Positions 29,558 to 39,292 of a DNA stretch of 64,000 nt are shown here, piece by piece. Positions within the stretch are counted from its first letter, which is position 1; every line of letters begins with the position of its first letter. The notes beneath the pieces are model-generated. The model was not told the DNA's origin. It was given only the letters and a program-made list of their open reading frames with translations, and searched no databases. This DNA comes from Acidimicrobiia bacterium. GTDB lineage: Bacteria > Actinomycetota > Acidimicrobiia > Spongiisociales > ZC4RG35. Location: the NCBI GenBank assembly GCA_049578105.1, contig JBAULI010000017.1:3-64002 (forward strand), in the 5' to 3' direction. The position numbers were made by a program, and so were the translations under genes.

Positions 29558-30805
29558 CTAGGGGAGCCTCCTCAGCGCCGCCCGAGCGTGGGCCTCCAGA
29601 CCTTCCATCCGGGCCAGCGTCACGGTGTCCTCCACCATCGTGGCCGGGTCGTCGAGACGCGACCAGGTGGGTGACCGCAGAAAGGTCATGACCGACAACC
29701 CGGATTGGTACCTCGCTCCACCGCCGGTCGGCAGGACATGGTTGGGGCCGACCCCGTAGTCGGCGAACGCTTCCGCACTCCCGGCGCCGATGAACAACGA
29801 CCCATAGGAGCGCAGCCGCATCGCCGTCTCCTCTGCAGGGCCAACGTGCAAGGCGAGGTGCTCGGGGGCCAACCGCTCGGCGATTCCAGTCGCTTCGGCC
29901 AGGTCGGAGACCACGGTGGCAAACCCGTTGCCCAGGGCAGTGGTGGCCGTGGCCGAGGTGGGCAGGTCGCTCAGTTGGTCCCGGATCCGGATGTCCACGG
30001 CATCGGCGAGGGCGGCGCTGGTCGTGACCAGGATCGGAATCGCATCGACGTCGTGTTCGGCCTGGGCCAGCAGGTCGGCAGCCACCAGGTCGGGGTCGGC
30101 GCCATCGTCGGCGATGACCAGGATCTCGCTGGGCCCGGCGAGGCCGTCGATCCCGACTTCGCCGAAGAGGTGCTTCTTGGCAGCCGTCACCCACTTGTTG
30201 CCGGGGCCTACGATCATGTCGCAAGGAGGCGTAACCACTCCAAAGGCGAGCGCGGCGATGGCCTGGGCGCCACCCACGGCCAGAAGCCCGTCGGCACCTG
30301 CAACCGAAGCAGCGGCCAGAGTGGCCGGTGTGGGGCGTGGCGAGGCGACCCAGATCGAGTCGACGCCGGCCACGGCCGCCGGGACGACCGTCATCAAGAC
30401 GGAAGAAGGGAGGGGATGCCGCCCACCGGGGGCATAGGCACCAACTCGACTCACCGGGATCCACCGGTGCCCGGCCCGCCCCCCTTCAACGGGCACATCG
30501 AGCTCTGAGAGGCCACCGAGTTGGGCTCGGGCAAATCGCGCGATGCGGTCCCGGGTCCGATGGAGCGTGGCGAGATGAGCGGAGTCGAGACCCTCCGTCG
30601 CGGCCGCCAGGGATTCGCGGTCATACGTCAGCTCGTCACCCGGCCCGATATCACCCAAAGACTCTCCGTGACGTCGTAGGGCGGTCTCACCACCGGAGCG
30701 AACGCTCTCGACGATGTCGACCGCGGTCTTCATGGCCTCGGCATCGACGGCTGGCCTCGTGTGTCGCTGCACCTCACCAGCTTCGATTCGCTCGAGGAGG
30801 GTCAT
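29558..30805 (-). CDS. hisD: Histidinol dehydrogenase
   Basis: 415 aa with …GPGNKWVTAAKKHLFGEVGIDGLAGPSEILVIADD…AQAEHD… HisD signatures. ATG overlaps the hisA-IE stop (ATGA). Confidence 0.9.
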   Translation of the reverse strand: MTLLERIEAGEVQRHTRPAVDAEAMKTAVDIVESVRSGGETALRRHGESLGDIGPGDELTYDRESLAAATEGLDSAHLATLHRTRDRIARFARAQLGGLSELDVPVEGGRAGHRWIPVSRVGAYAPGGRHPLPSSVLMTVVPAAVAGVDSIWVASPRPTPATLAAASVAGADGLLAVGGAQAIAALAFGVVTPPCDMIVGPGNKWVTAAKKHLFGEVGIDGLAGPSEILVIADDGADPDLVAADLLAQAEHDVDAIPILVTTSAALADAVDIRIRDQLSDLPTSATATTALGNGFATVVSDLAEATGIAERLAPEHLALHVGPAEETAMRLRSYGSLFIGAGSAEAFADYGVGPNHVLPTGGGARYQSGLSVMTFLRSPTWSRLDDPATMVEDTVTLARMEGLEAHARAALRRLP

Positions 30806-32064
30806 GATTCCTTGGGCTTCCTGTCCATCGGTCGGCGTGTCACCCGCAGCTCTCTCCGATCGAGCACTTCTTCGACCGCCTCGAGCGACGAGCCCGCCTC
30901 CGTCAGCTTCACCAGTAGGAAGTAGAGGAGATCGGCCGCCTCCTCTTCCACATCGGCGGGCTCCGTTGCCGCAGCCAGCTCTCCGGCCTCCTCGATCAGC
31001 TTGGCTGCCAGGAGGTCCGGGTCGCGAAGCAGTTTGGCTGTGTTCGATGCCGGTGATGGGCTCGAACCGATCCCGGACAGCCGTCGTTGGAGACGGGTCA
31101 CACCACGATCCTCTCCCCAGCAGGTCCGTGTGCCCGTGTGACAGAAGCCATCGTGCTGATGGACCATGAACCGGAGTGTGTCGCGATCGCAGTCGACGTC
31201 GACTGCCAGCAACTCCTGCACTGCGCCTGAAGTCTCGCCTTTGACCCAGATTCCTCGGGATCTGCTGTGATACACCCCCCTCCGGGTGTCGATGGCATCG
31301 TTGAGGCTCGCCGCATCGGAGAAGGCCATCCCCAAGGCCACCCCACTCTCGTCGATTACGACAGTGGGCCACAGCCCGTCGACGCGGTCGGAGCGCAAGA
31401 TGGCTGACATCGCGTCGCCAAGAGTCAGCTCCCCTGTGTACAGGGCCATGCCGACCTGGGCATCGGCACCGATGCGATCCAGGATCTCCAGCTCTTCGGG
31501 CGTGCTGACGCCCCCGGCGATCGTCACCGGTGTTCGCCCGGCTGCGGCGACGACTTCCGTCGCCCGGATGAGATCTGTCCCGGCCATGTGCCCTTCGTGC
31601 TCCACGAATGTGACGAGGAAGCCGCCGCACAGGTCTTTCAACTCCTCGACACGCTCCAACAGACCAGACTCGGTCGTGCGCCGCCAGCCATGGCTGAGAA
31701 CCCTCCCCCCTCGGGAATCGAGAGCCACGATGACCCTCTCCTTGGGCAGTTGCCTCAACAGCTCCGGGGTGGCGGCCGTCCCGATGATGATCTTCGAAGC
31801 CCCGCGGTCGAGCCATCTCAGGCATGCCTCGATATCGCGGATACCACCACCGACTCTGATCCTCGCCCGATGGCACAACTCGGATATCAGCGCCTCATTG
31901 TCGCCCTCGCCCCGAGCGGCATCGATGTCGATCACCGCCACCTCGCCCACGACCGAGAAATTGTCGAGGAGAGGGCGTGGGTCGCCGGCATCCAGCACCT
32001 CGGTCTCACCCTCTATCAATTGGAGAGCCCGGCCGGCGGATATGTCGATCGAAGGGACTATCAC
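30802..32064 (-). CDS. hisA-hisIE: Tri-domain fusion: HisA/PriA-like ProFAR isomerase, HisI PR-AMP cyclohydrolase and HisE PR-ATP pyrophosphatase
   Basis: N-terminal about 240 aa (beta/alpha)8 HisA (MIVPSIDISAGRALQLIEGE…VGGGIRD…AGGVSTPEELE…). Middle HisI (…GIWVKGETSGAVQELLAVDVDCDRDTLRFMVHQHDGFCHTGTRTCW…). C-terminal HisE (…LLAAKLIEEAGELAAATEP…EEAADLLYFLLVKL…). One continuous frame of 420 aa. Confidence 0.8.
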   Translation of the reverse strand: MIVPSIDISAGRALQLIEGETEVLDAGDPRPLLDNFSVVGEVAVIDIDAARGEGDNEALISELCHRARIRVGGGIRDIEACLRWLDRGASKIIIGTAATPELLRQLPKERVIVALDSRGGRVLSHGWRRTTESGLLERVEELKDLCGGFLVTFVEHEGHMAGTDLIRATEVVAAAGRTPVTIAGGVSTPEELEILDRIGADAQVGMALYTGELTLGDAMSAILRSDRVDGLWPTVVIDESGVALGMAFSDAASLNDAIDTRRGVYHSRSRGIWVKGETSGAVQELLAVDVDCDRDTLRFMVHQHDGFCHTGTRTCWGEDRGVTRLQRRLSGIGSSPSPASNTAKLLRDPDLLAAKLIEEAGELAAATEPADVEEEAADLLYFLLVKLTEAGSSLEAVEEVLDRRELRVTRRPMDRKPKES

Positions 32065-32816
32065 GGTCGAACCTCGAAGCCGGCATCAGCAAGCGCGGCT
32101 TTCAGGTCAGCCACCGTCGTGTCGCCGTCATGGAGGATCGAGGCGACCAACACCGCCGAGGCACCGGCACGAACGGCCTCGATCAGATGCTCGGCGTTGT
32201 CTGCTCCCCCCGACGCGATCACCGCCACCGGCACCGAATCGCTCACACGAGTCAGGAGGTCGGTGTCGTAGCCGGTTCTGGTCCCATCGCGGTCCCAGCT
32301 CGTGAGGAGGATCTCCCCGGCGCCGAAGTCGGCAGCGGTCCGGCACCACTCGACCACGTCGATGCCGGTCCGGGTCGCCCCGCTCTCTATCACGACCTCC
32401 CAGCTGGTTTCGTTGGAGGCCGCATCCACGGCCAGGACGGTGCACTGGGCCCCGAAGCGAGTGGCGATTTGCTCGATGAGGTTCGGGTCACGGACGGCGG
32501 CGGTGTTGACACCGACCTTGTCGGCTCCGGCTTCGAGAAGCCGGCCGGCATCGTCCGTCGAGCGCACGCCTCCGCCGACGGTGAGGGGGATGGAGAGCTC
32601 GGCGCGCACCCTCTCCACGGTCTCGATTGCGTGTGAGCGGCCCTCCGGGGTGGCCGAGACGTCGAGAAGCACGATCTCGTCGCCACCCTGGCCCTGGTAG
32701 AGGGCGGCGGCTTCCACGGGATCACCGGCGTCGCGCAGGTCCTGGAAGCGAACACCCTTCACCACCCTTCCGTCCTTGATGTCGAGACAGGGGATCACCC
32801 GGGTTGCCAGGGTCAC
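32061..32816 (-). CDS. hisF: Imidazole glycerol phosphate synthase, cyclase subunit
   Basis: GTG start giving VTLATRVIPCLDIKDGRVVKGVRF… as in canonical HisF. The start overlaps the hisH stop (GTGA) and the stop overlaps the hisA-IE start. Confidence 0.9.
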   Translation of the reverse strand: MTLATRVIPCLDIKDGRVVKGVRFQDLRDAGDPVEAAALYQGQGGDEIVLLDVSATPEGRSHAIETVERVRAELSIPLTVGGGVRSTDDAGRLLEAGADKVGVNTAAVRDPNLIEQIATRFGAQCTVLAVDAASNETSWEVVIESGATRTGIDVVEWCRTAADFGAGEILLTSWDRDGTRTGYDTDLLTRVSDSVPVAVIASGGADNAEHLIEAVRAGASAVLVASILHDGDTTVADLKAALADAGFEVRP

Positions 32817-33409
32817 GATGCCCTCAGCCAGCGATCGATGATCGACACCCCCCAGTCGCCTGAGAGCTCGGGGTGGAATTGCAGGGCGAGCACCGATTGG
32901 CGCTCGATCGCGGCGATGAATCGCCCGCCATGGTCCGCCGTCGACGAGACCCATCCCCTCGGGGCATCCACGAGTCGGTAGGAGTTGGCGAAGTAGGCCC
33001 AGCCCGGCTCCAGGTAGCGCGAGCTGGGGTTGGCCTCGACCGTGTTCCACCCGAGCTGGGGAACCCTCACGTTGTCGCCGAATCGAGTGACGCTCTCATC
33101 GAGGAGACCGAGACCCAAGACACCGGGGCTCTCCGTGCTGTCCCGGCACAGCAGCTGCATCCCGACACACACGGCGAGGGTAGGGGAGCCGGCCCGGGCC
33201 CGATCGAGGATGGGCTGGCTCAGTTGGAGTCTGTCGACCGCCGTCATCGCCGCACCGAAGGAGCCGACACCAGGCACGACCAAGTGATCGGCGTCGGACA
33301 CATCGCAAGGCGATCGCGCGAGACGGGTGGTTGACCCCAGACGGCGAAATGCGGAGCGGACACTGGCAATGTTGGCCGTGCCGGTGGGCACGATGACCAC
33401 CTCTGTCAT
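32813..33409 (-). CDS. hisH: Imidazole glycerol phosphate synthase, glutamine amidotransferase subunit
   Basis: Class I GATase: …LVVPGVGSFG…, catalytic Cys in LAVCVGMQLL, …LQFHPE…. Confidence 0.9.
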   Translation of the reverse strand: MTEVVIVPTGTANIASVRSAFRRLGSTTRLARSPCDVSDADHLVVPGVGSFGAAMTAVDRLQLSQPILDRARAGSPTLAVCVGMQLLCRDSTESPGVLGLGLLDESVTRFGDNVRVPQLGWNTVEANPSSRYLEPGWAYFANSYRLVDAPRGWVSSTADHGGRFIAAIERQSVLALQFHPELSGDWGVSIIDRWLRAS

Positions 33410-33990
33410 CCCAGGCTTCCCTTGGTGCTCGGCACTCCGGAGCCGTTTGGCCTCACCGCCATGCGTAGGGCGAGGGCCAGGGCCTTGAAGCTCGCCTCGG
33501 CCCTGTGGTGGTCGTTGTCACCACGCAGCACGTCGACATGGAGCGCCAGCTTCCCCTCCATGGCCAGCGATCGAAGGAAGTGGGTCAGGTTCTCGGTCGC
33601 CACCTCGCCGACCGAGGGGCGAGCGAAGGGGATAGAGATCTGCGGCCAGGGTCGGCCGGAGAGGTCGACTACCGCACGTGCCAGTGATTCGTCCAGTGGT
33701 GCATATGCGTAACCAAATCGCTCGATGCCCGATCGATCGCCGAGGGCCCGGTCGAGGGCCCTGCCCAGGGCGATGGCGCAATCCTCGACCGTGTGGTGGT
33801 CATCGACCCGGACATCCCCCGTGGCGTCCAGCTCGAGATCGAAACCGGCGTGTTTGGCCAGGGTGCCCACCATGTGATCGAGGAAGCCCAGCCCCGTCTC
33901 GACTCGGTGAGCCCCACTGCCGTCGAGGTCGAGATGGCACCGGACATCTACTTCACTCGTCTCTCGTCTGACATCTGCGGATCGGGTCAT
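33406..33990 (-). CDS. hisB: Imidazoleglycerol-phosphate dehydratase (monofunctional)
   Basis: …RRETSEVDVRCHLDLDGSG… and …HHTVEDCAIALG… IGPD motifs. 194 aa, with no phosphatase domain. Confidence 0.9.
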   Translation of the reverse strand: MTRSADVRRETSEVDVRCHLDLDGSGAHRVETGLGFLDHMVGTLAKHAGFDLELDATGDVRVDDHHTVEDCAIALGRALDRALGDRSGIERFGYAYAPLDESLARAVVDLSGRPWPQISIPFARPSVGEVATENLTHFLRSLAMEGKLALHVDVLRGDNDHHRAEASFKALALALRMAVRPNGSGVPSTKGSLG

Positions 33991-35660
33991 GGGAGCAACT
34001 CCTCCAGTTCATTGACATGGTCGAGGACGCGGGCTGCGTCTTTCAGTGTCTTGCGGGTCTCGAGCGGATCGTCACCAGGGGCGATCACCCCGATCGGAAC
34101 CACCCCGGCCCGACGGGCGGCGACGATGTCGTCGATGGTGTCGCCGATCATCCACGCCCGGGAGACTCCGAGCAGACTGAGCGCCTTGGAGAGGGGGGCG
34201 GGCTCCGGCTTCAGAGGTCCGTCCTCGCGGGTCACCAGGGCATCCAAGGTCTCGAGTAGGCCAAAGCGATCGAGGAACTCTTCGGCGTCCGAGCGAGGGC
34301 GACCGGTCACCACGGCCAGGGGCAGGGCGCTCCGCCAGCGTCGCCATCGGGCCGGCTCGACGAGGAGGGACTCTTCTGCCTTCAAACCGGGACGGCCGTT
34401 CTCCCCCTGATATCGCCTCTCATATGAAGCCGTGACCTCATCCAGGCTGACGTCGATTCCCTGATCTGTGATCAGCCGATGTGTGAGGGCCCAGTCGTCG
34501 TTGGCGTGGCCGGCCGCCTTCATCACCGCGACATGCTCTGTCGTCGCTTCGACGCCGAAATCCAATGCGGTTTCGACGATCGCCCGCGTCTGTGATTTGC
34601 TGACGTCCGCCAACACGCCATCGAGGTCGAAAAGCAGAGCTTGGGGCGCCATGGCGACCTCCAGCGTGCTGAGCAGACGATCGAATCTCGCCCGATGCCC
34701 GGGCAAGGTGATGCGGATCGATTGCTCCAGACCTTCACGCCCGGGAAAGGTGCGCAGGGCCACACCGAGCGACGCGGCCGCATCGGCCACCCATGGTGTC
34801 GAAGGTGTCCTTGCCAGGATGAAGTTCGCTTGTGATCCCAGGACTTCTGCACCCAGAGTGGTGAGACGCGAGGTGAGGTCGCTCCTCTCCTGCCGCACCT
34901 CGTCCACGATGCGGGTCAGCTCGACTCTCGGCCGTCGAAGACGAGCCGAAGCGATGCCGGCCGACAGAGCTGACACGGAATACGGGCTCCCGTAGGCGGC
35001 GACGGTCGAGACGAGCGGGACCGCGCCGAGGAGATACCCGACCCGGAGTCCCGCCAGCCCGTAGGCCTTGGACAGGGTCCTCACCACCACCACGTTCTCC
35101 AGCCCGAGCGCCGTGGGCGTCAGATCGAGGTCGGCGAACTCGGCGTAGGCGGCGTCCAGGACGAGGAGGGGAACCCGGGCGGCGAGCTGAACCAGGTCGT
35201 CCGCCGTGGCCACCTGGCCCGTGGGATTGTTCGGTGAGACCACGAAGACGGCGTCGGTGTCGTCGGTCACCAGACCCAACAACGCTTCCAGAGGGAAAGC
35301 ACCATCCCACCATTGAGCCTGCGACAGCCTTGCCCCACGCTGTTCGGCATATCTGGAGATCATCTCGAACGTGGGGTAGGTGCTGAGAACCTCGCCACCT
35401 TCTCGAATGAAGGCCAGAAAGCACCTGAGCAGGGCGTCGTCACCGCCTGCAGTCACCAGGACCCGGCCGGGCTCGAGCCCGTGGAGGGCCGCTATCTGCT
35501 CGCGAAGTGTGCCGGTGTCCGGGTACCTCTGGACGAGACGGGCGGGGTCGTCGAGCGAGGCGATCAGGTCTTCTGCCGGGGAGGTCCCCTCGTTTCGGGA
35601 CAGGTCGAGGTCGATCTGAGCGTCGAAGGCCGGTGTTTCGTAGGCAGATACGTCCCTCAT
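33987..35660 (-). CDS. hisC: Histidinol-phosphate aminotransferase fused to a C-terminal HAD-superfamily phosphatase domain (candidate histidinol-phosphatase)
   Basis: N-terminal about 350-aa class-II aminotransferase (…VVSPNNPTG…, PLP Lys in LSKAYGLAGLRVGY) runs in frame into a HAD domain with all four motifs: LLFDLDGVLAD (I), LAVVTGRP (II), K in LKPEP (III), GDTIDD (IV). The start ATG overlaps the hisG stop. Confidence 0.8.
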   Translation of the reverse strand: MRDVSAYETPAFDAQIDLDLSRNEGTSPAEDLIASLDDPARLVQRYPDTGTLREQIAALHGLEPGRVLVTAGGDDALLRCFLAFIREGGEVLSTYPTFEMISRYAEQRGARLSQAQWWDGAFPLEALLGLVTDDTDAVFVVSPNNPTGQVATADDLVQLAARVPLLVLDAAYAEFADLDLTPTALGLENVVVVRTLSKAYGLAGLRVGYLLGAVPLVSTVAAYGSPYSVSALSAGIASARLRRPRVELTRIVDEVRQERSDLTSRLTTLGAEVLGSQANFILARTPSTPWVADAAASLGVALRTFPGREGLEQSIRITLPGHRARFDRLLSTLEVAMAPQALLFDLDGVLADVSKSQTRAIVETALDFGVEATTEHVAVMKAAGHANDDWALTHRLITDQGIDVSLDEVTASYERRYQGENGRPGLKAEESLLVEPARWRRWRSALPLAVVTGRPRSDAEEFLDRFGLLETLDALVTREDGPLKPEPAPLSKALSLLGVSRAWMIGDTIDDIVAARRAGVVPIGVIAPGDDPLETRKTLKDAARVLDHVNELEELLP

Positions 35661-36523
35661 GGCACTATCTGGTCGAGTCGGGTGACGGCTATGTCGCTGG
35701 CTCCGAGCTGTTTCAGGAGAGGGATGAGTCGGGGCAGCTCGTCCCGAGGCACTGCGGCCTTCACCGCCATCCCCATGCCGCCGTGGAGTGGGGCGACGGT
35801 GGGCTCCCGCATCGCGGGGACGTTGGCGATGATCGCATCGAGATCCTCGAGCGGGACGTTGCACTCCAGCATGACCCTTTGTCGCGCCTCGAGGACGGAG
35901 CGAAGGCCGAGGACGAGGTCGTCGATGGGCTCCTTCTTGGCGGGGTCCGTCATGGCGAGCTGTGAGGCGTAGAGCCGGGTGGAGGACGTGAGCAAGACGT
36001 CGACGACGACGAGGCCATTGGCGGCAAGCGTCTCGCCCGTGGCCGTGTTGTCGATGATCACGTCGGCATCTTCGGGTGGGAAGACCTCTGTCGCCCCGTA
36101 AGAGTGAACGAAGTGGGCCGAGACGGCGCGGTCGGCGATCCACTGCCTGGTGAGACGCTCGTACTCGCTGGCCACCACCAGGCGCCGGTCGGGGAGCGCC
36201 TCTCCCTCCAGGAGGCCTTCGGGCACGGCAGCCACGATTCGCACCGGGTCCAGACCCGTGTCGAGCAACTCGACGAGGTCGGCCTGCTTCTCTGCAACCC
36301 AGTCCGCACCGGCAAAACCGATGTCGCGAGTCCCGGATGCGAGCATCTCCACGATGTTCTGCGGCTTGAGGAGCTTGACCTCGAAACCGGATTCCGAGAG
36401 CACCGGGCGATACCCCCTCTGACCGACGCGGAGGTCCATCCCGGCATCCCTGAACAGGGCAAAGACGCCCGACTCCATGCGTCCTTTGGGAAGGGCCATG
36501 TGGATTGTTGGCGTATCGATCAT
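35657..36523 (-). CDS. hisG: ATP phosphoribosyltransferase, long form with C-terminal regulatory domain
   Basis: 288 aa. …ALPKGRMESGVFALFRDAG… catalytic domain plus a C-terminal His-binding regulatory domain. Strong RBS GAGAGGAG before the ATG at 36523. Confidence 0.9.
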   Translation of the reverse strand: MIDTPTIHMALPKGRMESGVFALFRDAGMDLRVGQRGYRPVLSESGFEVKLLKPQNIVEMLASGTRDIGFAGADWVAEKQADLVELLDTGLDPVRIVAAVPEGLLEGEALPDRRLVVASEYERLTRQWIADRAVSAHFVHSYGATEVFPPEDADVIIDNTATGETLAANGLVVVDVLLTSSTRLYASQLAMTDPAKKEPIDDLVLGLRSVLEARQRVMLECNVPLEDLDAIIANVPAMREPTVAPLHGGMGMAVKAAVPRDELPRLIPLLKQLGASDIAVTRLDQIVP

Positions 36524-36556
36524 GTTGCTCCTCTCCGCCGATGCGGTCGGAGCCCT

Positions 36557-36590
36557 GGGAAACAGAAGCGCCGACCTCGTTGGTCGGCGT
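36557..36590 (-). terminator. his attenuator: Rho-independent terminator between the leader peptide and hisG
   Basis: Transcript sense: GAA-CGCCGACC-AACGA-GGTCGGCG-CUUCUGUUUCC. An 8-11 bp GC-rich stem, 5-nt loop and U-rich tail, 33 nt upstream of the hisG ATG. Confidence 0.65.
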
Positions 36591-36624
36591 TCAGAATGGT
36601 TTGAGTGTTCGCTTCAGCCCATCG

Positions 36625-36681
36625 TCAGCCGACCCGTGACGGGTGGTGATGATGGTGGAGGTGGGCGAACGTCGGGTTCAT
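36625..36681 (-). CDS. hisL: his operon leader peptide MNPTFAHLHHHHHPSRVG (18 aa, six His in seven residues)
   Basis: ATG AAC CCG ACG TTC GCC CAC CTC CAC CAT CAT CAC CAC CCG TCA CGG GTC GGC TGA, read on the minus strand. The 3' end GGGTCGGC can pair with the terminator 5' arm GCCGACC (antiterminator). Lies between a putative promoter and hisG. Confidence 0.65.
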   Translation of the reverse strand: MNPTFAHLHHHHHPSRVG

Positions 36682-36690
36682 GTGCCCTGA

Positions 36691-36718
36691 AGCATAGGGC
36701 GTGAGGCCCTGTCCGCAA
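36691..36718 (-). promoter_or_regulatory. Putative sigma-70-type promoter of the his leader (TTGCGG-N16-TATGCT), divergent from valS
   Basis: In transcript sense, TTGCGG ACAGGGCCTCACGCCC TATGCT ends 11 nt before the leader ATG. Motif match only. Confidence 0.3.
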
Positions 36719-36757
36719 CTCCCGATCCCGACGGGGGCCGGGTTACCCTTCGCCGCG

Positions 36758-39292
36758 ATGACGAGAAACATCCCGGAAAAGCCGAAGCTCGAGGGTCTCG
36801 AGGCCAAGTGGATGGATCGTTGGGAGTCGGAGGGCACCTATCGATTCGACCGCTCCATGGAGCGATCGCAGATCTTCTCGATCGACACGCCCCCGCCCAC
36901 GGTGTCCGGATCGCTACACATGGGATCTGTGTTCGGCTACGTGCAGACCGATGCAGTGGCCAGATATCGACGTATGACCGGGATGGAGTTGTTCTATCCG
37001 ATGGGTTGGGATGACAACGGTCTCCCGACCGAGCGCAGGGTGCAGAACTTCTACGGTGTCAGATGCGATCCGTCTCTTCCATACGACCCTGGTTTCGAGC
37101 CGCCGGACGCCCCTGCCGAACCTCCGACGCCGATCAGCCGGCGCAACTTCGTCGAACTCTGTCACGGGCTGACCGCAGAGGACGAGCAGGTCTTCGAGAA
37201 GACGTGGAGGAGCATCGGGCTCTCCGTGGATTGGACCCAGAGCTACGCGACCATCGACGAGCACAGTCAGCGGATCAGTCAGAAGGCCTTCCTGGCCAAT
37301 CTGCAACGGGGAGAGGCGTACTCACAGGAGGCGCCGGTCCTATGGGACGTCGACTTCAAGTCGGCCATCGCCCAGGCCGAGTTGGAGGATCGCGATCGGC
37401 CGGGCGCCTATCACCGGGTCGCATTTCATGGTGATGACGGAGCCCGAGTGTTTGTCGAGACCACCCGCCCGGAGCTGATCGCCGCCTGTGTGGCATTGGT
37501 GGCTAACCCGGACGACGAGCGGTATCAGGATCTCTTTGGGAGCACGGTCAGATCGCCTCTGTTCGATGTCGAGTTGCCGGTCGTGGGTCATGAGCTCGCC
37601 GATCCCGACAAAGGCAGTGGCATCGCCATGGTCTGCACTTGGGGGGATACGACCGATGTCACATGGTGGCGGGAGCTGGATCTTCCGACACGACCTGTGC
37701 TGCAGCACAACGGCCGTTTCCGTGATGACACGCCGGAATGGCTCGGATCGGGCGCTCCGCAGGCCGCCTACGACGCCATAGCTGGTCTCCACCCGAATCA
37801 GGCTCAACGAAAGATGGTCGAGATGCTGGGTGAGTCCGGGGATCTCGAGGGGGAGCCGCGGCCGATCACACATCCGGTCAAGTTCTACGAGAAGGGAGAC
37901 CGGCCGCTGGAGATCGTGTCGAGTCGTCAGTGGTACATCCGCAACGGGGGGCGTGACCCCCAGTTGAGGGATGAGCTGTTGCGACTGGGCAAGGAGCTGG
38001 ATTGGATCCCGGATTTCATGGCCGTTCGCTTCGAGCATTGGGTCAACGGTCTGAATGGCGATTGGTTGATATCCAGGCAGCGCTTCTTCGGTGTCCCTCT
38101 TCCGATCTGGTATCGGATCGATAGAGACGGCGAGATCGACTATGACCATCCGATCTTGCCCACCCTCGATGACTTGCCGGTAGATCCGACCTCGGACACC
38201 GCCCCCGGCTACGAAGAGGCCCAGCGGGGAGAGCCGGGTGGTTTCGTCGGTGATCCAGACGTCATGGACACGTGGGCGACGTCGTCACTCACACCGCAGA
38301 TCGCCGGTCACTGGGATGACGACCCTGATCTCTTTTCCCGCGTGTTTCCCATGGACATGCGTCCCCAAGGCCCCGAGATCATCAGGACTTGGTTGTTTTC
38401 CACACTGCTTCGATCGCACTATGAGCATGGTGTGCTGCCATGGGAGCACGCGACGATCAACGGGTGGATCCTCGACCCCGATCGCAAGAAGATGTCGAAG
38501 TCCAGGGGCAACGTGCTCACTCCCATCCCGCTGATCGAGGAGTATGGGGCCGAGGCGATCCGCTACTGGGCGTGCAATGGTCGCCCCGGGGTGGACACCG
38601 CGTTCGACCTGGGAGTTCTCAAGATCGGGCGTCGTCTTGCGACGAAGATCTTGAACGCATCCCGTTTTGCCTTGGGGTTCGGGGGCGACGAAGGCCCGGG
38701 AGCGATAAGCAACGAGGTGGATCGTTCGATGCTGGCCGCACTGGCCTTGGTGGTTCGCGAGGCCACCGCCGCATTCGAGGACTTCGACTACGCCCGCGCC
38801 CTCGAAGTCGCCGAGCGCTCGTTTTGGACCTGGACGGACGACTATGTCGAATTGGTGAAGTCGAGGGCCTACGAGGGGGGTGAGTCGGGCGCCTCCGCCC
38901 ATGCGGCGCTACAGCTGTCGCTGTCGGTGTATCTCCGTCTCTTTGCACCATTCCTGCCCTTTGTCACCGAAGAGGTGTGGTCATGGTGGAGGGAGGGGTC
39001 GGTGCATCGATCGTCGTGGCCGCAGACGAGTGAGCTCGAAGAGCATGGTGGCGATCCGAGGACCCTGGCTCTCCTGGGTGAGGTGCTCACTGCAGTCCGT
39101 CGAGCGAAGTCGGACGCCAGGCTGTCGATGCGAGCCGAGTTGGAGAGCTTGACCGTGGCGGGTAGTGACACAGATCTCGGTTTGCTTCGACAGGGAGAGG
39201 ACGATCTGCGTGCGGCGGCTCGCGTGGGTCGGGTGACGTATGTCGAGGGGGAGTTCGATGTGACTGCCGTGGTGGTCGACACCCCCGAATAG
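36758..39292 (+). CDS. valS: Valine--tRNA ligase (short actinobacterial/archaeal-type form)
   Basis: Class I motifs: PPTVSGSLHMGSVFGY (HIGH-type) and KKMSKSRGNV (KMSKS). Editing and anticodon-binding regions present. 845 aa from the ATG at 36758. Confidence 0.9.
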   Translation: MTRNIPEKPKLEGLEAKWMDRWESEGTYRFDRSMERSQIFSIDTPPPTVSGSLHMGSVFGYVQTDAVARYRRMTGMELFYPMGWDDNGLPTERRVQNFYGVRCDPSLPYDPGFEPPDAPAEPPTPISRRNFVELCHGLTAEDEQVFEKTWRSIGLSVDWTQSYATIDEHSQRISQKAFLANLQRGEAYSQEAPVLWDVDFKSAIAQAELEDRDRPGAYHRVAFHGDDGARVFVETTRPELIAACVALVANPDDERYQDLFGSTVRSPLFDVELPVVGHELADPDKGSGIAMVCTWGDTTDVTWWRELDLPTRPVLQHNGRFRDDTPEWLGSGAPQAAYDAIAGLHPNQAQRKMVEMLGESGDLEGEPRPITHPVKFYEKGDRPLEIVSSRQWYIRNGGRDPQLRDELLRLGKELDWIPDFMAVRFEHWVNGLNGDWLISRQRFFGVPLPIWYRIDRDGEIDYDHPILPTLDDLPVDPTSDTAPGYEEAQRGEPGGFVGDPDVMDTWATSSLTPQIAGHWDDDPDLFSRVFPMDMRPQGPEIIRTWLFSTLLRSHYEHGVLPWEHATINGWILDPDRKKMSKSRGNVLTPIPLIEEYGAEAIRYWACNGRPGVDTAFDLGVLKIGRRLATKILNASRFALGFGGDEGPGAISNEVDRSMLAALALVVREATAAFEDFDYARALEVAERSFWTWTDDYVELVKSRAYEGGESGASAHAALQLSLSVYLRLFAPFLPFVTEEVWSWWREGSVHRSSWPQTSELEEHGGDPRTLALLGEVLTAVRRAKSDARLSMRAELESLTVAGSDTDLGLLRQGEDDLRAAARVGRVTYVEGEFDVTAVVVDTPE

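Follow-up and report, generated by a model that had tools for sequence, protein, structure and literature searches.

A predicted His-codon leader-peptide attenuator ahead of the his operon in Acidimicrobiia

Results

In a 64,000-nt stretch of contig JBAULI010000017.1 from an Acidimicrobiia bacterium (hereafter the window), the histidine biosynthesis gene hisG starts with an ATG at 36523 on the minus strand, and valS starts divergently with an ATG at 36758 on the plus strand. The 234-nt intergenic region holds nothing besides the element studied here, a leader with a His-rich open reading frame (ORF), an intrinsic terminator and mutually complementary segments, which we interpret as a putative ribosome-mediated transcription attenuator. 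Because valS is divergent and the his side lies directly downstream, the terminator cannot belong to an upstream gene. hisG (35657..36523, -), which would be the first regulated gene, encodes a long-form ATP phosphoribosyltransferase that matches TIGR00070 and TIGR03455, both above their cut-offs. The HisG protein is 96% identical to a protein of an Acidimicrobiia metagenome-assembled genome (MAG), and the nearest relatives with a named organism are labelled Acidimicrobiia. The rest of the operon (29558..35660, -) consists of a hisC-HAD fusion, hisB, hisH, hisF, a hisA-hisIE fusion and hisD, as assigned by NCBIfam matches. Neighbouring genes of the operon share a few bases at their ends, and together they encode the complete His pathway. 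The GC content of the window is 0.61-0.66 (about 63%), lower than the roughly 70% given in an earlier note on this DNA.

The leader ORF (36625..36681, -), read from the sequence, runs from an ATG at 36681-36679 through 18 sense codons to a TGA at 36627-36625; its predicted peptide is MNPTFAHLHHHHHPSRVG. Six of the 18 codons are His codons, in front of an operon devoted to histidine. Five of them are consecutive (CAC CAT CAT CAC CAC, 36643..36657, -), and the sixth (36661-36663) lies two codons earlier, all as described in the earlier note. The run, CAYCAYCAYCAYCAY or (CAY)5, has a single match in the 64-kb window and was seen in 0/100 dinucleotide-preserving shuffles. The fold of the 177-nt leader has a z-score of -3.5 relative to shuffled sequences.

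To follow the leader in other genomes, 80 loci with close HisG relatives (62-84% HisG identity) were fetched. By a simple ORF scan, most of these loci have a His-run ORF ahead of hisG, and the conservation that the earlier note had made a check of its proposal is therefore present. Within the run CAC and CAT are swapped synonymously among relatives, and the run itself is kept. In nearly all Acidimicrobiia loci the leader peptides are of the type MNRLFAHAHHHHHPSRVG, and homologous ORFs ending in HHHH(H)P-x-[RW]-V-G-stop precede hisG. Most Acidimicrobiia-type leaders have their stop codon 15 nt past the His run; the terminator starts 25-40 nt (mostly 33-40) past the stop and ends 74-100 nt before the LPKG motif of HisG. 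Differing His-rich peptides are found in MAGs labelled Gemmatimonadales, Longimicrobiales, Planctomycetota, Myxococcota, Sumerlaeota and Gammaproteobacteria.

A covariance model (R1) was built from an alignment of 49 leaders (A1). In the window R1 has a single match, at 36558-36684, with a score of 115.9 bits. Among the 80 loci, 66 have a full-length, same-strand match directly upstream of hisG; most of these are Acidimicrobiia, and some are MAGs with other phylum labels. The matches outside the training set include those in loci L035 (100.6 bits), L053 (89.1), L076 (44.6), L073 (44.3), L066 (42.0), L079 (39.4) and L074 (37.5), among others. A second alignment (A2) was made of 52 model matches; it is fitted to the model and hence biased toward the modelled helices.

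The MAGs labelled as other phyla deserve a separate remark. Thirteen of them (L058, L071, L073, L074, L075, L078, L079, L080, L043, L061, L066, L068 and L076) carry a hisG of the same lineage, at 62-67% identity, and the layout of their leaders is the same as that of the Acidimicrobiia His leader, with a different peptide. Several bins labelled "uncultured Acidobacteriota" have Acidimicrobiia-type leaders and 78-79% HisG identity. In these bins either the gene and its leader were transferred together or the bins are mislabelled.

Four segments of the leader take part in the predicted structures. The intrinsic terminator formed by regions 3 and 4 (36559..36589, -) was found both by folding and by a terminator scan. 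Its stem, CGCCGACC-AACGA-GGUCGGCG at 36589-36569, is followed by the U-rich tail CUUCUGUUUC (36568-36559); the minus-strand DNA reads CGCCGACC-AACGA-GGTCGGCG and then CTTCTGTTTC. The stem has 8 bp, 7 of them GC pairs, a predicted energy of -16.3 kcal/mol and a position 46 nt upstream of the hisG start. A test for a hairpin followed by at least 5 T in 9 nt was passed by 61/66 leaders scanned. The Rho-independent terminator named in the earlier note is thus recovered by sequence, terminator scan and conservation alike.

A second hairpin, 1:2 (36619..36655, -; -19.3 kcal/mol), is formed by the His and Pro codons pairing with the ORF-end segment CGGGUCGGCUGACGAUGG, which takes in the stop codon. 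It was missed in the earlier note, and it completes a four-segment scheme. In 45 relatives this hairpin has a median energy of -20.3 kcal/mol and a median z-score of -3.35, with z < -2 in 38. RNAalifold applied to A1 gave exactly two helices, the terminator and the 1:2 core; in the latter CAYCACCC (the last His codons plus Pro) pairs with GGGUCGGNUG, including the UG of UGA. The core of region 2, GGUCGGC (36628..36634, -), overlaps the last sense codons, can pair with either region 1 or region 3 and is the segment that best complements the terminator 5' arm. In those Acidimicrobiia-type leaders whose ORF ends 15 nt past the His run, this best complement lies at -10..0 from the stop. The predicted antiterminator 2:3 (36582..36634, -; -20.4 kcal/mol) combines GGUCGGC:GCCGACC with an inner GAUGG:CCAUU helix, and the region 2-3 segment exceeds the terminator in stability in 41/45 relatives.

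Folding under ribosome masks suggests how these structures could alternate. When the leader is folded without a ribosome, 1:2 is formed and region 3 is left free, so that the terminator can form. With the ribosomal A-site placed on any of the five His codons and the transcript ending before region 4, the minimum free energy structure is the 2:3 antiterminator. With the A-site on UGA, the ribosome covers region 2, and region 3 has no partner. When 61 loci were folded with a stalled ribosome, region 3 paired with the ORF-end segment in 56 of them. The ability of GGUCGGC to pair with the GCCGACC arm of the terminator, on which the earlier note had built its proposal, is therefore seen both in the sequence and in the constrained folds.

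Two minor features of the leader also concern pairing. Leader codons 2-4 (36670-36676, -) contain CCGAC, which in the closest relatives is CCGGC; it is complementary to the GUCGG of regions 2 and 4 and is a possible fifth pairing partner, confined to one clade. Most leaders have a Pro codon directly after the His run, and its CC pairs with GG of region 2. The enterobacterial HisL peptide, which ends in HHHHHHHPD, also has a Pro codon after its His run.

Covariation differs among the three helices. In A2 the terminator is paired in 99.8% of cells, with three pairs changed on both sides and an A-U pair replaced by G-C in 13 sequences, and the 1:2 core is paired in 97.8%. For the terminator and 1:2, 0/500 shuffles reach the observed scores, and slid controls collapse. 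The antiterminator 2:3 is 93-94% paired, and compensated variants are few. In L044, L085 and L086 region 2 reads GGGCCGG, together with CCGGCCC in region 3 and GGCCGG in region 4; L043 combines GGCCGG with CCGGCC, and L079 has GGAAGCCGG opposite CCGGCUUCC. A metagenome scan for GGGCCGG variants gave six matches: two real leaders (L085 and L086) and four incidental matches in coding sequences. As far as the aligned sequences indicate, covariation is compensatory in the terminator and weak in the antiterminator. There are other data pointing to constraint on the RNA. First, the 1:2 consensus helix leaves the U and C of GGGUCGG without partners, although these two bases hardly vary; in 2:3 they are paired. 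Second, no change is seen at position three of the Val codon (GUC), but changes do occur at position one of the Arg/Trp codon before it and at position three of the Pro codon. Therefore, the "RVG" end appears to be under RNA-level rather than peptide-level constraint.

Upstream of the ORF, the window carries a -35-like hexamer, TTGCGG (36713..36718, -), and a -10-like hexamer, TATGCT (36691..36696, -). Their TTG and TANNNT cores are conserved. When 60 related leaders are anchored on their ATG, 51 of them show a TANNNT whose end is 6-11 nt (mostly 9-10) before this codon; the rest of the 45 nt ahead of the ATG has it at one other distance, in one locus. In 44/60 of these leaders a TTG is found 15-19 nt ahead of the -10 hexamer, most commonly as TTGCCA. 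We infer from this conservation that TTGNNN-N16-TANNNT is the leader promoter. The promoter proposed in the earlier note, TTGCGG-N16-TATGCT, is therefore conserved in relatives, but the distance from its end to the ATG is 9 nt instead of 11 nt. If transcription starts 6-8 nt past the -10 box, the 5' untranslated region (UTR) would be roughly 0-4 nt, and therefore the leader ORF is probably leaderless or nearly so. No Shine-Dalgarno (SD) sequence is conserved ahead of the ATG in the 60 aligned leaders. The AGGG earlier taken for a weak leader SD was rejected: it is 3 nt from the ATG, unconserved, and placed after the -10 box but ahead of the likely transcription start.

The -10 box itself contains an ATG. 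In most relatives (compared at the equivalent position in L004-L031) this ATG is in frame with the leader and would add MLxxD to the peptide. In the window it is out of frame, the spacer being 1 nt shorter than in relatives, and conservation at the DNA level, as a promoter, is therefore favoured over an alternative start codon.

No promoter-like site was found in the stretch from the terminator to hisG. The SD region of hisG is GGAGAGGAG (36528..36536, -, read from the sequence), where relatives carry a conserved CGGCGGGAAGGA; in a further alignment (A3) the CGGCGGGAAGGA-like sequence just before the hisG start (36528-36545, -) is strongly conserved. Two candidate structures in this stretch were rejected. 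The CGGCGGGAAGGA-like sequence can fold in the window with CUCCGACCG, between the terminator and the hisG SD, and RNAalifold gave no such consensus across relatives. In the window and in relatives the U-tail can in many cases pair with purines that follow it (36556-36568, -; CUCG/CGAG, CUG/CAG and UUUUG/CAAAA), but this fold is no more stable than in shuffled sequences (mean z = -0.09).

The element falls outside the catalogued his-leader families, and no Rfam, Pfam or NCBIfam model reaches threshold. An Rfam scan of 36000-37200 (cmscan with permissive filters) found neither RF00514 (His_leader) nor a T-box at E <= 10, and neither was found in 11 related loci at E <= 1. The sole Rfam match in the leader region and these loci is a chance lncRNA (E = 0.93). 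An NCBIfam profile search of the leader peptides gave no match. With Pfam PF08047, the window peptide had no match, and the peptide of one relative scored 12.2 bits (E = 0.18), the cut-off being 25 bits.

Discussion

The above observations make it very likely, though short of certain, that a functional His-responsive, ribosome-mediated transcription attenuator stands ahead of the his operon. This interpretation relies on the architecture kept in 66/80 loci, on the ribosome-constrained folding and on the covariation of the terminator, and the same evidence upholds the classical choice between 2:3 and 3:4 that the earlier note had proposed. Our analysis covers, by computation, the sequence elements, their conservation, predicted energies and structure switching under ribosome masks.

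In the proposed mechanism, transcription of the his operon would be tied to the supply of charged tRNA-His. Transcription would start at the leader ATG or a few nt before it, and a 70S ribosome, following RNA polymerase closely, would translate the 18-codon ORF. With ample His-tRNA, the ribosome would reach the UGA and cover region 2 (GGGUCGGCUGACGAUGG), leaving region 3 (CGCCGACC) free to pair with region 4 (GGUCGGCG). The 3:4 hairpin and its U-rich tail would then end transcription about 40-45 nt before hisG. If no ribosome is loaded, region 2 would be held by the His codons in 1:2, and the terminator would form again. When His-tRNA is scarce, the ribosome would stall on one of the five His codons and cover region 1 only, so that region 2 stays free. 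Free region 2 would pair with region 3 as the latter emerges, no terminator would form, and the polymerase would go on into hisG, hisC-HAD, hisB, hisH, hisF, hisA-IE and hisD. Both actual termination at this site and a histidine response of the operon are expected under this mechanism.

Several points weigh against the attenuator. First, the switch that the earlier note expected from folding with and without a ribosome constraint is seen when region 4 is absent, but the full-length leader at equilibrium keeps the terminator even with a stalled ribosome. Since the terminator wins at equilibrium, the switch must be kinetic, as in other attenuators; a kinetic choice is accepted for the classical ones. 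Second, within Acidimicrobiia the 2:3 helix is nearly invariant, with no double-sided change, and column-wise covariation is uninformative there. At its diagnostic position A2 has UA in 33 sequences, UG in 6, CG in 3 and no pair in four; 19/500 shuffles reach the score of the helix in this alignment. In L020 and L027 a central pair of the helix is replaced by a C-A mismatch that nothing compensates. Third, the U-tract is interrupted (CUUCUGUUUC). Fourth, the GC-rich type of stem is generic in these genomes. In L018 a second R1 match (1014-1100, 20.2 bits) covers the 3' part of the model, with GACGCCGGCCCC-CGA-GGGGCCGGCGTC and a T-run; it was rejected as a leader, being an ordinary terminator at the end of an unrelated ORF. 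Therefore, the likeness of terminators across phyla alone is no proof of common descent. Finally, the mechanism presumes coupling of transcription and translation in Acidimicrobiia, a class where coupling is unstudied. Our confidence is held below certainty because the covariation of the antiterminator is weak, the U-tract is imperfect and the support is computational.

An alternative in which the leader also senses His-tRNA differs in the output, which would be Rho-dependent termination or an effect on the structure or translation of hisG mRNA, the hairpin being mainly structural or stabilizing. The imperfect U-tract is in keeping with this possibility, as is the conserved CGGCGGGAAGGA that abuts the hisG SD, and leaderless Cys-rich short ORFs of mycobacteria do attenuate downstream genes (bioRxiv 10.1101/834739). 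However, nearly every member (61/66 leaders) has a hairpin with a U-rich tail, and the hairpin shows compensatory changes. The terminator lies 46 nt upstream of the hisG start, which makes masking of the SD impossible, and RNAalifold found no conserved structure between the two. We consider such an output improbable.

Still less room is left for a reading in which the ORF specifies a His-rich micropeptide that acts by itself (a metal binder, for example) and has a dedicated terminator, hisG being transcribed independently. The N-terminal half of the peptide, MNRLFAH, is fairly well conserved within Acidimicrobiia, as would be expected of such a peptide. But the association with hisG persists across phylum labels while the peptide outside the His run changes completely, and the conservation of the C-terminal "RVG" tracks nucleotide pairing rather than codon degeneracy. 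Moreover, a micropeptide offers no role for three mutually complementary segments, and independent transcription of hisG would call for the promoter-like site that is absent between the terminator and hisG. A ribosome-independent RNA sensor, whether a T-box, a riboswitch or a target of a His-activated RNA-binding protein, is hardly credible either: T-boxes do control his genes in other Actinobacteria (PMC9413887, PMC3896937), but neither a T-box nor, beyond the chance lncRNA match, any other Rfam family was found in the leader or in the 11 related loci at the thresholds given above, and what is conserved is an in-frame ATG, a His run with synonymous variation and a stop codon inside region 2.

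Comparison with known systems may help to place the attenuator. In the E. coli trp attenuator, four segments pair in a 1:2 / 2:3 / 3:4 scheme. The Acidimicrobiia leader parallels it, with regulatory codons in segment 1, the stop codon at segment 2, a 2:3 antiterminator and a 3:4 terminator, and super-attenuation is predicted here too when translation is absent. The two differ in the amino acid and in the phylum, and there is no homology between them. The enterobacterial his leader has a longer chain of alternative hairpins (A-F), compared with four segments here, and hisL has a conventional 5' UTR and SD, whereas the ORF described here is probably leaderless. The element would work like the enterobacterial his attenuator and still more like the four-segment trp attenuator. 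With enterobacterial hisL it shares a short His-run ORF before a hisG-first operon, and an intrinsic terminator that alternates with an upstream pairing, the position of the ribosome deciding which of the two forms (PMC3896937, PMC9413887). The number of His codons is seven in hisL (PMC3896937) and five plus one in the window, and there is no detectable homology of sequence or structure, RF00514 and PF08047 being unmatched.

Other parallels come from outside Enterobacteria. In the Bacillus cereus group, Peptostreptococcaceae and Erysipelotrichales, his attenuators missed by RF00514 were predicted by comparative genomics (PMC9413887). These too combine a terminator and an antiterminator with a His-rich leader peptide, in which three to five His codons follow one another, but they belong to Firmicutes and stand before different operon heads (hisZ is named in PMC4833913); the likeness is one of descriptions. 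In mycobacteria, the leaderless start of polycysteine short-ORF attenuators has been demonstrated (bioRxiv 10.1101/834739). Each is an actinobacterial short ORF at the 5' end of a transcript, rich in codons for the amino acid of the pathway, that controls downstream genes, and the leader described here would be of the same kind. They differ in using Cys instead of His, and in our case the leaderless start is judged probable from promoter spacing and a canonical terminator and antiterminator are present. In Corynebacterium glutamicum, hisD has a T-box and no His-rich ORF, and the T-box controls hisDCB (PMC3896937). This is again RNA-level control of actinobacterial his genes by the charging of tRNA-His, but the T-box senses uncharged tRNA directly, with no leader peptide, and the leader studied here has no T-box match.

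With regard to the literature on Actinobacteria, a 2005 survey reported no conserved RNA structure upstream of actinobacterial his operons (PMC1262725), and a 2022 survey assigned his attenuators to Proteobacteria and three Firmicutes lineages and T-boxes to Actinobacteria (PMC9413887). Together with the C. glutamicum work (PMC3896937), these agree with the remark in the earlier note that characterised actinobacterial his operons rely on a T-box or lack regulation at this level. An earlier prediction of the element is possible, since a conference paper from 2015, cited as reference 18 in PMC4833913, deals with leader peptides of Actinobacteria that contain His. What is new is not the mechanism, which is textbook, but the lineage, the start that appears to be leaderless, and a distribution that is wide and uncatalogued.

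A broader reading has, in our judgement, about an even chance of being right. The leader would belong to an uncatalogued his-leader family that follows one long-form hisG lineage through Acidimicrobiia and MAGs labelled Gemmatimonadota, Planctomycetota, Myxococcota and others, and it would be read from a leaderless mRNA by 70S ribosomes loading at the 5' end, right behind RNA polymerase. If this is true, the family lends itself to testing transcription-translation coupling in lineages that have not been examined for it. The probable leaderless start also makes it a simple system for asking whether leaderless translation couples to transcription. On the attenuator interpretation as such, a deep actinobacterial class and several other poorly studied phyla use classical His attenuation. 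The family could easily be added to RNA-family databases, with a gain in annotation for thousands of MAGs. The mechanism being a known one, the gain is one of distribution and annotation, not of principle.

Two fusion genes of the operon may also be mentioned. The 420-aa product of hisA-hisIE (30802-32064, -) joins HisA (residues 2-222) with HisI and HisE (residues 223-405) and is an unusual fusion of three activities. The product of hisC-HAD (33987-35660, -) has a C-terminal HAD-type hydrolase domain of the TIGR01548 family (residues 340-518), which could be the histidinol-phosphate phosphatase of this lineage. If so, every step of the pathway is encoded within one operon.

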